DNA of 64,000 nucleotides. Origin: Thermoanaerobaculia bacterium (GTDB lineage: Bacteria; Acidobacteriota; Thermoanaerobaculia; UBA5066). The notes beneath the pieces were generated by a model. The model made no database searches. It was not told where the DNA came from and saw nothing but the letters and a program-made list of their open reading frames with translations. The stretch is from assembly GCA_038245905.1 (NCBI GenBank), contig JBBRRY010000011.1:23589-87588 (forward strand), in the 5' to 3' direction. Below, piece by piece: positions 48,614 through 48,928 of the stretch. How positions within the stretch are numbered: the first letter of the stretch is position 1; every line of letters starts with the position of its first letter. A program made the position numbers and the translations under genes.

Positions 48614-48662
48614 GGGGTTCTCCTTTTCGCCTGTCCTTCGTTCGTCGCAGGTTTTCAAGCAC

Positions 48663-48696
48663 AAAAAAAACCGGCCCTCTCGCGTGAGAGGGCCGG
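48663..48696 (-). terminator. Attenuator terminator in the metY leader
   Basis: Perfect 11-bp stem CCGGCCCUCUC/GAGAGGGCCGG, ACGC loop and U8 tail, lying between the promoter and the metY start. Confidence 0.9.
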
Positions 48697-48746
48697 TTGG
48701 GGAATCCGATGAGCGTGTGCTCCCGGTTCGCCTGGATTCGCGGGGT

Positions 48747-48890
48747 CTAGGTCGGTTGTGTCCCCGACCCTGCGAAGCCGCCGTCCGTCTCCCGCGGGGG
48801 AGCGCCGGACATCGAACACATGCACATACAAATTCGAACCGCCGCGATGGGCGTCGCGATCGAGAAGGCGGAGGCGGAGCGGTTCGACAT
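48747..48890 (-). CDS. Putative Met/Cys-sensing leader peptide, 47 aa
   Basis: [47 protein letters not shown]. Codons 21-27 read TGT ATG TGC ATG TGT TCG ATG. Confidence 0.8.
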
Positions 48891-48899
48891 GTTCGGGCG

Positions 48900-48928
48900 A
48901 CCTTAGAGACGTCGGATCAATTGGTCAA
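48900..48928 (-). promoter_or_regulatory. Sigma70 promoter of the met leader/operon
   Basis: TTGACC-N17-TAAGGT, 9 nt before the leader ATG. Confidence 0.75.

Follow-up and report, generated by a model that had tools for sequence, protein, structure and literature searches.

What controls the metY-metX genes of this Thermoanaerobaculia bacterium, and could a short reading frame upstream of them be part of the answer? The controls usually named for methionine genes are SAM riboswitches, T-boxes and regulatory proteins, MetJ and MetR among them, and the textbook leader-peptide attenuators are those for Trp, His, Phe, Leu, Thr and Ile/Val. An earlier, sequence-only reading of this DNA had proposed that a leader peptide rich in Met and Cys codons attenuates transcription of metY-metX, and had not recognized this as a described met mechanism. 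Leader-peptide attenuation is a known control principle, and we likewise found no published description of a version that reads Met. To exclude a SAM riboswitch or T-box over the region, we ran an Rfam scan: no known RNA family, riboswitches and T-boxes included, matched positions 48300-49300 at E <= 10, and at the gathering score the window (the whole 64,000-nt stretch of DNA analyzed) contained one tRNA only and no SAM riboswitch or T-box. All the features described here lie on the minus strand. The first gene, metY (47300..48625), encodes an O-acetylhomoserine sulfhydrylase (homocysteine synthase) with an AAGGAG ribosome-binding site (RBS) at 48625-48620 and an ATG at 48613, and its product scores 649 bits against the NCBIfam model TIGR01326, above the cut-off of 495. 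It is followed by a metX-like homoserine O-acyltransferase gene (46239..47303), which overlaps the end of metY by 4 nt. The proposed operon is confirmed for metY and its RBS; metX has the NCBIfam MetX models as its best matches (TIGR01392, 271 bits against a curated cut-off of 500, and NF001209, 258 bits), both below their curated cut-offs.

A putative promoter at 48900..48928, read from the sequence and its conservation, consists of a -35 box TTGACC (48928-48923), a 17-nt spacer and a -10 box TAAGGT (48905-48900). It is present as the sequence-only reading had described it, although a scan of 47000-50500 with the E. coli consensus returned 0 sites and did not call it, because TAAGGT agrees with TATAAT at just three of six positions. 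Conservation, and not the scan, is what argues for it: an alignment of 20 sequences from the genus (A1) has little or no variation in TTGAC and at three positions of the -10 box (T, A and the final T), and the arrangement TTGACN-N17/18-TAnnnT is present at 32 acidobacterial loci. An ATG at 48890, 9 nt past the -10 box, opens a near-leaderless reading frame (48747..48890, by translation) of 47 codons, ending in a TAG at 48749-48747. Codons 21-27 of this leader ORF (48810..48830), TGT ATG TGC ATG TGT TCG ATG, spell Cys-Met-Cys-Met-Cys-Ser-Met, so that three Met and three Cys codons stand within seven; both the frame and the run were found where they had been reported. At the 32 loci with a recognizable promoter the start codon lies 7-9 nt (once 12) past the -10 box, and at every one of them (32/32) the first ATG or GTG located 7-12 nt past that box shares its frame with the Met/Cys run. 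This frame is kept despite many indels, with N-terminal lengths that range from 8 to 29 codons. When all 3.8 Mb of the genome were translated in six frames, runs of at least four consecutive Cys/Met residues were found at six places and CMCMC solely at the metY leader, which is more than chance. Outside the leader, the same genome has the five other runs of this kind and 28 places reading M.M.M (six frames); two candidates for further such leaders were examined (on C55 and C12), and neither has a promoter or a terminator.

The sequence-only reading had suggested that conservation be sought in related metY upstream regions. We searched 24 congeners, 22 of which have a metY orthologue and 20 of which have the metY 5′ flank on the contig, and the promoter, the ORF in its frame, a CMCMC-type run and the terminator described below are present in all 20. 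The 23 more distant acidobacterial metY loci that we compared (MetY 57-82% identical) all share this design, with run, frame and terminator preserved; in them Met is kept at about alternate codons and the start codon again lies 7-9 nt past the -10 box. In every acidobacterial locus collected, the leader unit is directly before metY. Within the genus the control ATG codons are invariant and the Cys codons vary between TGT and TGC at the third base (A1). Among 43 distinct leader peptides, 40 have at least three core Met residues, 42 have at least one Cys and 25 at least two, and the residues between alternate Mets are Cys (41), Ser (22), Pro (10) and others. Since these intervening residues vary, the feature that is kept is the in-frame ATG and not a hexamer repeat. 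Of the two control amino acids originally proposed, Met at alternate codons is constant across the wider family, and Cys is a near-constant companion that is often replaced by Ser, Pro or other residues. The Met/Cys run is the sole conserved coding feature of these 43 leaders, whose N-terminus varies freely in sequence and length among the acidobacterial loci. A protein search with the leader peptide retrieved only seven small proteins, ORFs of this type already annotated as (hypothetical) proteins in public data; all of them are metY leaders of the genus type, and the search added no reach.

Downstream of the leader ORF, a terminator scan found an intrinsic terminator (48663..48698; regions 3 and 4) with a 13-bp stem, AACCGGCCCUCUC / GAGAGGGCCGGUU, a loop ACGC and a U8 tract (in DNA, AACCGGCCCTCTC-ACGC-GAGAGGGCCGGTT followed by T8). 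The perfect 11-bp GC hairpin noted earlier is the core of this stem and does begin 50 nt past the leader stop. The stem, with an energy of about -27 kcal/mol, is invariant across the 20 genus sequences, and in 42 of 44 acidobacterial loci a terminator is found 27-58 nt past the leader stop. Region 1 (CCGGCGCUCCC; 48798..48808), the putative anti-antiterminator strand, begins 2 nt past the last Met codon and would therefore be covered by a ribosome that stalls on that codon. Region 2 (GCGGGAGACGGACGGCGG; 48778..48795), the candidate antiterminator strand, encodes R-E-T-D-G-G and can pair either with region 1 or with the 5′ arm of the terminator. Its pairing with region 1 gives hairpin P1, which is present in both the minimum free energy (MFE) and centroid folds of a 150-nt segment and of the 304-nt leader, and whose pairs are 79-97.5% kept in A1; outside the terminator, region 2 (GAG..GGACGG invariant) has the most conserved columns of that alignment. 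Hairpin P2 (GGCUUCGCAGGGUC...GACCCCGCGAAUCC; 48734..48779) was obtained with RNAalifold and has the leader stop codon (48749-48747) at the base of its inner stem-loop; 9 of its 16 pairs are changed on both sides, that is, they covary. Hairpin P3 (GGCGAACCGGGAGC-ACAC-GCUCAUCGGAUUCC; 48701..48732), supported by RNAalifold and local folding, has 13 pairs with 90.7% of cells paired and one pair changed on both sides. P2 and P3 differ in sequence among lineages. Folding of the 150-nt segment gives P1, P2, P3 and the terminator at a z of -5.46, a stability reached by 0 of 200 shuffles. In the centroid fold of the 304-nt leader, the metY RBS takes part in no pairing.

We folded these RNAs with the segment covered by a ribosome masked, on the assumption that RNA 5′ of a stalled ribosome is unable to pair across it. 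The folds reproduce the classical 1:2 / 2:3 / 3:4 logic. When the ribosome is placed at the last control codon, the MFE structure pairs region 2 with the terminator 5′ arm in all nine sequences first folded, and in a larger set this pairing appeared in 40 of 42, with an antiterminator of at least five pairs in 40 of 42. The median energy gained when the terminator 5′ arm pairs upstream was -10.7 kcal/mol in this stalled state, compared with -1.7 kcal/mol for a ribosome at the stop codon and -3.0 kcal/mol without a ribosome; the stalled gain was lower than the gain at the stop in 40 of 42 sequences. The free fold keeps the terminator intact in 39 of 42. In 37 of 42, most of region 2 is paired with the stretch that a ribosome can mask; for the leader of the window itself, the global MFE structure pairs just four of nine region-2 bases with that stretch. 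Ribosomes stalled at the first Cys codons leave region 1 free, and therefore only the later control codons would switch. In GC-rich RNA such as this, the antiterminator is just modestly better than mononucleotide-shuffled controls: the gain for the window's own sequence is -9.4 kcal/mol, against -5.6 ± 2.4 in shuffles, 6 of 60 of which are equally good, and over the 42 sequences the median z is -1.45, with z <= -2 in 11.

The strand that takes part in this switch is not the one first proposed. The sequence-only reading had taken AGGGUCGG (48771-48764), paired with CCGGCCCU, as the antiterminator, and this pairing is possible in the window's sequence, where RNAduplex includes it. We rejected it as the antiterminator of the family: it is not conserved, relatives read GAGGUCCG, GAGGUCUG and similar at the same place, and AGGGUCGG belongs to the 5′ arm of the covarying hairpin P2. 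The conserved partner of the terminator arm is 48795-48778, and it is with this region 2 that folding under ribosome masks, a check proposed at the outset, yields a terminator/antiterminator switch. The antiterminator helix, which is 12 pairs long and has 95.4% of its cells paired, does not vary within the genus and therefore shows no covariation there. At the level of the whole helix covariation is found, as in lineages whose terminator arm differs, region 2 differs to match it: GGAGAGGGAG goes with CCCUCUCC, GCGGGAGGACGG with CCGGCCCUCCCGC and, in locus L109, GCCCGAUGCGGG with CCCGCAACGGCG. In lineages with a different terminator arm the RExDGG tail of the peptide is replaced by ERE- or GGPG-type tails. 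A role for this tail at the peptide level was set aside, as the motif goes with whichever RNA strand complements the terminator arm of a lineage; the conserved tail (AP...RExDGG) is best read as the shadow that regions 1 and 2 cast on the coding sequence and not as a functional peptide.

So structured a leader invites another reading, in which it is an RNA switch that binds a metabolite or protein (for example an undescribed SAM-responsive element), in which P2, P3 and the long-range helix would meet to form the sensor and the ORF would be incidental. The z of -5.46, the covarying P2 and the invariant purine-rich bases would fit such a switch, as would the SAM-II matches before metY in relatives of Gemmatimonas, L058 with 42.5 bits (over the cut-off) and L113 with 32.3 bits (below it). 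We nevertheless regard it as improbable. No Rfam family matches at E <= 10, the P2 and P3 sequences differ among lineages, and the invariant bases are accounted for by their pairing with the terminator arm and region 1. An incidental ORF is also hard to reconcile with a fixed distance from the -10 box to the start codon, with a frame to the Met run kept in 32/32 loci despite indels, and with alternate-codon ATGs that are kept while the codons between them change.

In our judgment, the element is quite probably a transcription attenuator of the leader-peptide kind, in which a ribosome gauges how much charged Met-tRNA and Cys-tRNA is available to set the expression of metY-metX, as the sequence-only reading had proposed; all the computational tests run (the Rfam null, conservation and the masked folds) support this. 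Promoter, frame, control codons, terminator, P2 covariation and pairing potentials are all visible in the sequence or in its comparison with relatives, and from these parts we infer a translated leader ORF on which stalling, its timing and the dual sensing of Met and Cys would operate as follows. From a transcription start 0-3 nt ahead of the leader ATG, an RNA would be made whose near-leaderless 5′ end loads a ribosome. When Met and Cys are plentiful, this ribosome would pass the control codons and reach the stop codon inside P2; behind it, region 1 (48808-48798) would re-pair with region 2 (48795-48778), the terminator (48698-48663) would form, and transcription would end before metY. When Met-tRNA or Cys-tRNA is scarce, the ribosome would stall at the later control codons (Cys25, Met27) with its footprint over region 1. 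P2 and P3 would then fold undisturbed, and a helix of region 2 and the terminator 5′ arm would close a three-way junction; on account of this pairing RNA polymerase would read through into metY-metX. One puzzle comes with the model: as Met is the initiator too, its starvation should hamper the translation that the switch needs, and lowered initiation on the leader ORF would oppose read-through.

A translated leader could also control termination while reporting general translation capacity, or the coupling of transcription and translation, and not Met and Cys specifically. Any ribosome slowing on 48830-48810 would mask region 1, and leaderless initiation may itself respond to physiology. We give this reading as little credence as the RNA switch, since it does not account for a Met/Cys run that is the sole conserved coding feature in the 43 distinct leaders, is unique in the genome, and stands directly before region 1 and ahead of a Met/homocysteine synthesis operon in every case. 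Least probable of all is that the promoter-to-terminator unit is a separate small gene, for a Cys/Met-rich micropeptide or an sRNA of about 230 nt, with metY served by read-through or another promoter: the unit does have a promoter and terminator of its own, such ORFs carry hypothetical-protein annotations from gene callers, and trans-acting attenuator RNAs and peptides are known for trpL of Sinorhizobium, as far as the accessible part of that literature goes, yet the peptide N-terminus is free in sequence and length, its conserved tail coincides with the RNA pairing strands, the unit is always directly before metY, and a promoter scan found no further promoter-like site between terminator and metY.

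We also looked for the element elsewhere. Using 41 leaders we built a covariance model (R1) and searched 151 genomes, sampled evenly from the phylum; 10 of them gave matches with E <= 0.001. The real ones are G000 and G017 only, both of this genus; the eight others (24-31 bits) were rejected as ordinary gene-end terminators with no metY nearby. As the true matches are confined to the genus, the search shows no wide spread in the phylum, and its stricter filters may lose weak matches. Analogous leaders, rich in Met/Cys and with terminators, were found before metY in Gemmatimonas MAGs. It is conceivable, although we stop somewhat short of favoring it, that the metY leader is one branch of a large, undescribed, multi-phylum class of Met(-Cys) attenuators read by ribosomes, which would replace SAM riboswitches before metY and have Met at alternate codons as its design rule; the acidobacterial branch would read the position of the ribosome twice, once by the masking of region 1 and once because only an untranslated P2 lets the three-way junction close. 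In contigs from four public RNA libraries, fits came only from relatives, mostly less than 95% alike. The pieces cover 48699-48842 (X19), 48806-48933 (X17) and 48513-48691 (X15), and among those listed none bridges leader, terminator and metY; such contigs show no starts, ends or strand, and may derive from DNA.

If the attenuator is what it appears to be, it would fill a gap, in that sensing of charged tRNA by the ribosome would govern sulfur amino-acid synthesis too, and it would extend attenuation to Acidobacteriota with leaderless mRNAs. In practical terms, it would supply an annotation rule for a recurrent unannotated element and give experimenters a compact, mutable switch. The customary RNA controls of metY and metX, SAM riboswitches and Met T-boxes, likewise stop transcription early in the 5′ leader of these genes. 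In them the RNA itself detects SAM or uncharged tRNA, and no such Rfam model matches the metY leader at E <= 10. Its nearest relatives are the polycysteine leaderless uORFs of mycobacteria (Ms5788A and its relatives; Canestrari et al., 10.1101/834739), which also are short leaderless ORFs with Cys control codons before sulfur- or cysteine-related genes, and where, according to the accessible portion of that report, stalling on uncharged tRNA-Cys relieves repression. As described there, those uORFs act on translation, with the Shine-Dalgarno sequence sequestered in a very stable duplex and transcription termination shown by the authors to play no part, and their Cys codons are consecutive, placed at the 3′ end of the ORF and without Met. 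The metY leader, in contrast, would act through a canonical terminator with U8, leaves the metY RBS unpaired in the centroid fold, and alternates Met and Cys in mid-ORF (codons 21-27 of 47). Candidate Cys-codon leader peptides before sulfur amino-acid genes were also predicted by comparative genomics before cys and cbs operons of Mycobacterium, Propionibacterium and Bifidobacterium (Seliverstov et al., 2005; PMC1262725). In the accessible part of that study these lack a conserved terminator hairpin, unlike the metY leader, and Rho dependence is suggested for them; no conserved RNA element is reported there before methionine operons. The classical attenuators comprise the trpL, hisL, pheL, leuL, thrL and ilv leaders of Proteobacteria and the trp and ilvB leaders of Actinobacteria; what is said of them here draws on established knowledge as well as on PMC1262725, PMC2965389 and 10.1101/834739. 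The metY leader departs from them in its control codons, Met and Cys in alternation and not a homopolymeric run; in a near-leaderless ORF that is long (47 codons), runs through regions 1 and 2 and stops inside a further hairpin; in an antiterminator that is a long-range helix closing a three-way junction and not a simple hairpin; and in its host, an uncultured Thermoanaerobaculia acidobacterium. Like them, it has a leader ORF rich in codons for the pathway product, an intrinsic terminator before the first structural gene and mutually exclusive 1:2, 2:3 and 3:4 pairings, here predicted, that are chosen by ribosome position; the hallmarks of a classical attenuator are found together at metY: a usable start, cognate control codons, an intrinsic terminator, a predicted antiterminator and a maskable anti-antiterminator strand.

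On the minus strand, the order proposed in the sequence-only reading, that is, a promoter, a 47-codon leader ORF, a hairpin with U8 and the metY ribosome-binding site (RBS), was found as described. The promoter consists of a −35 box, TTGACC (48928-48923), and, after 17 nt, a −10 box, TAAGGT (48905-48900); a consensus promoter scan made no call at the leader. Translation places the leader ORF between an ATG at 48890 and a TAG stop codon at 48749-48747, and the intrinsic terminator (48698-48663) has a 13-bp stem, AACCGGCCCUCUC / GAGAGGGCCGGUU, with an ACGC loop and U8. The metY gene, with its RBS AAGGAG at 48625-48620 and its ATG at 48613, matches TIGR01326 with 649 bits, above the cut-off, and its end is overlapped by a metX-like gene on the same strand, for which MetX models are the best match, below their curated cut-offs. 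Directly upstream of the leader promoter, also on the minus strand, lies a gene (48949-49278) whose product is an RNA-binding protein of the RRM type, ending in a Gly/Tyr-rich tail (NF058537 Rbp_regulator, 109 bits; Pfam RRM_1). The end of this gene precedes the leader in most congeners too, and in some relatives (loci L010, L018 and L019) the gene has its own terminator. In a six-frame translation of the whole genome (3.8 Mb, 67.8% G+C), CMCMC occurs only in the leader, and consecutive Cys/Met runs of at least four residues occur in 6 places. The regulatory elements that the Rfam check was meant to exclude did not appear: a scan of 48300-49300 at E <= 10 returned just two microRNA matches, by chance, and a single tRNA accounted for all matches at gathering score in the whole window, so there is no SAM riboswitch or T-box at the leader.

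The predicted conservation of the Met/Cys run and its frame in relatives was borne out within the host genus. A metY orthologue was present in 22 of the 24 congeners searched, its 5′ flank was on the contig in 20, and all 20 carried the same leader device. Their leader peptides fall into three subtypes, including MTVRSASAASCMCMCMCIPCASREVDGGSTT and ...ICMCMCMPGALLREADGGM.... In the 20-sequence alignment TTGAC, the −10 TA...T, the start ATG and each ATG within the run are invariant or nearly so, as are GAG..GGACGG.GG and the entire terminator; the Cys codons of the run vary between TGT and TGC. At two loci the assembly itself drew attention. At L023 (G007:C5) the match of the metY orthologue breaks into three parts (residues 7-35, 34-130 and 129-437) behind an intact leader, which points to frameshifts or assembly errors; at L005 (G013:C10) a run of N, probably a scaffolding gap, lies between leader and metY, flanked by a duplicate of the P3/terminator segment. 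In two other families of the order (9 and 7 genomes, including the unpublished G025 and G030), MetY gave only paralogue-level matches (E ~1e-42 to 1e-47).

Beyond the genus, we sampled 60 relatives of the genome holding the metY locus L052 and obtained MetY matches at E <= 1e-150 in 30; seven of these belonged to the host genus again, leaving 23 further loci (L087-L109) with MetY 57-82% identical. A small upstream ORF with a Met-rich run was present at all 23, examples being RMVMPMCMAP, SMTMCMAMSMC, AMSMSMPMC, GMEMSMWMC and IAMCMCMRPM. The start codon, taken as the first ATG/GTG 7-12 nt past the −10 box, was in frame with the run at 32/32 acidobacterial loci with a recognisable promoter (TTGACN-N17/18-TAnnnT), the N-terminal part of the leader measuring 8 to 29 codons; the remaining loci, L100-L107, have TTGACA with an ATG 39 nt downstream and a −10 box missed by the search pattern. 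Among 43 distinct peptides from 44 loci, the nine-residue core contained at least three Met in 40, at least one Cys in 42 and at least two Cys in 25, and the residues between alternate Mets were C (41), S (22), P (10) and others. From these counts, the conserved feature is an ATG kept in frame at roughly every other codon, and the residue most often found in between is Cys. This pattern argues that the stretch is read as codons and is not simply a DNA or RNA hexamer repeat. A terminator follows 27-58 nt past the leader stop at 42 of the 44 acidobacterial loci, most of them sharing the stem CCGGCCCUC.... When an even sample of 151 genomes from the phylum was searched with a covariance model built from 41 leaders, just two, both belonging to the host genus, gave true matches, so the homologous leader family is not widespread in the phylum as RNA. 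The other eight matches were rejected as plain terminators not near metY.

Four hairpins, P1, P2, P3 and the terminator, make up the fold of the 150 nt running from region 1 (48808-48798) to the U-tract (-81.6 kcal/mol; z = -5.46; 0/200 shuffles as stable). The same hairpins recur in the 304-nt leader fold (z = -2.62), in whose centroid the metY RBS is unpaired. In nine of the 16 pairs of P2 (48779-48734) both bases vary across the genus, and the leader stop codon always lies within its loop or 3′ side; the terminator does not vary within the genus. Region 1, CCGGCGCUCCC, is similar to the 5′ arm of the terminator, CCGGCCCUCUC, and region 2, GAGACGGACGG, to its 3′ arm, GAGAGGGCCGG; this is the classical attenuator layout, seen directly in the sequence. 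Region 2 also changes together with the terminator arm between lineages (GGAGAGGGAG with CCCUCUCC, GCGGGAGGACGG with CCGGCCCUCCCGC), and in L109 both the terminator and region 2 differ from the others yet match each other.

The co-transcriptional folds with a ribosome mask that had been suggested gave the expected difference. Nascent RNA was folded up to the terminator loop with the mask on a control codon, on the stop codon or absent, presuming that RNA cannot pair across a stalled ribosome. When the mask covered the last control codon, region 2 (48795-48778, GCGGGAGACGGACGGCGG) paired in the minimum free energy structure with the 5′ arm of the terminator, in a helix closing a junction around P2 and P3. 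This antiterminator was found in 9/9 sequences from the three subtypes, and with at least five pairs in 40/42 sequences. The median gain from pairing the terminator arm upstream was -10.7 kcal/mol stalled, -1.7 at the stop and -3.0 without ribosome; it was lower stalled than at the stop in 40/42, the exceptions being L016 and L089. In the ribosome-free fold, 39/42 sequences kept an intact terminator, and region 2 was mostly paired with the stall-maskable segment in 37/42; the window's own sequence is among the five failures, with 4 of 9 bases paired in the global fold and P1 present in local folds. A ribosome stalled on the earliest Cys codons leaves region 1 free. Compared with mononucleotide-shuffled versions of the free segment, the gain stands out only modestly (median z -1.45, z <= -2 in 11/42); for the window it is -9.4 against -5.6 +/- 2.4 kcal/mol, with 6/60 shuffles as good. 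The 12 pairs of the antiterminator show no covariation within the genus, where nine of them are invariant. RNA-library contigs fitted to the locus came from relatives.

Cys/Met-rich leaders with terminators, analogous to the acidobacterial leader, also precede metY in Gemmatimonas MAGs. The locus L112, from a relative of the Gemmatimonas MAG, carries, ~210-50 nt before metY, a cassette apparently homologous to the acidobacterial one, with the terminator stem CCGGCCCTCTC...GAGAGGGCCGG and region 2 GAGACGGACCGG as in acidobacteria and only Met-Cys...Cys as control codons (MNTFALNLMCRISPCGSPQGETDRR...); this suggests that the leader was transferred together with metY. At L114, L115, L116 and L117, from Gemmatimonas MAG relatives, the stretch ~330-150 nt before metY holds a SAM-II-like motif, ...GATTTAGGGCCACTTGCTCCCGCC...AAAGAGCTAAAGCGCC, and such motifs occupy 1009-1084 of L058 and 2967-3041 of L113 in metY leaders. 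RF00521 scored 42.5 bits (above the cut-off) at L058, 32.3 at L113 and 22.7 at L062, with no match at E <= 0.5 in L114-L117. Following the motif is a Cys-rich mini-ORF (e.g., MLPQLRGCCRMFACRPCPG, VTARSPLCCCLMSCCPCRG and MKRCPEMCRCKCKCTPRG), which looks like a tandem of riboswitch and Cys leader; L115-L117 also have a terminator-like hairpin, not always after the mini-ORF. In a Gemmatimonadaceae MAG (L054 / L110, 305-215 nt before metY), an extra leaderless mini-ORF, MATNYVVATVFFLVNLSPSFIS, sits directly behind the promoter with its own small hairpin and T-run, upstream of the MCMC-containing ORF and main terminator.

Conservation of the peptide tail appears to reflect the RNA strands that encode it: AP derives from GCUCCC in region 1, and RExDGG or ERE from the purine-rich region 2. 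Homocysteine, the product of metY, is the Met precursor. The genome has cysK above the cut-off, and cysE solely below it. On contig C18 of the same genome (G000), a second CysK/CBS-like gene (TIGR01139, 347.8 bits, just below the cut-off) stands directly before a Cys/Met-family PLP enzyme gene (C18:48798-50398), and the two may form a reverse-transsulfuration pair linking homocysteine to cysteine. Given cysK and this pair, homocysteine may also supply cysteine by that route.

Sequence comparison and folding show a real, conserved element that very probably works as a transcription attenuator governed by a Met/Cys leader peptide. Full-text searching, which covered few subscription journals, turned up no publication on a leader attenuator with Met codons or on any leader peptide ahead of metY or metX. 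For Actinobacteria, sections of Seliverstov et al. (2005; PMC1262725) describe predicted Cys leader peptides that have no terminators, and they state that methionine operons showed no RNA element; parts of Naville and Gautheret (2010; PMC2965389) make no mention of a Met leader, and portions of PMC13236596 and PMC4833913 hold no further information about methionine. The mycobacterial polycysteine leaderless ORFs act, according to excerpts of Canestrari et al. (10.1101/834739), via SD sequestration, not termination. The mechanism proposed here is textbook leader-peptide attenuation; its new features are the amino-acid specificity, the alternating codons, a leaderless start and an antiterminator of the junction type.
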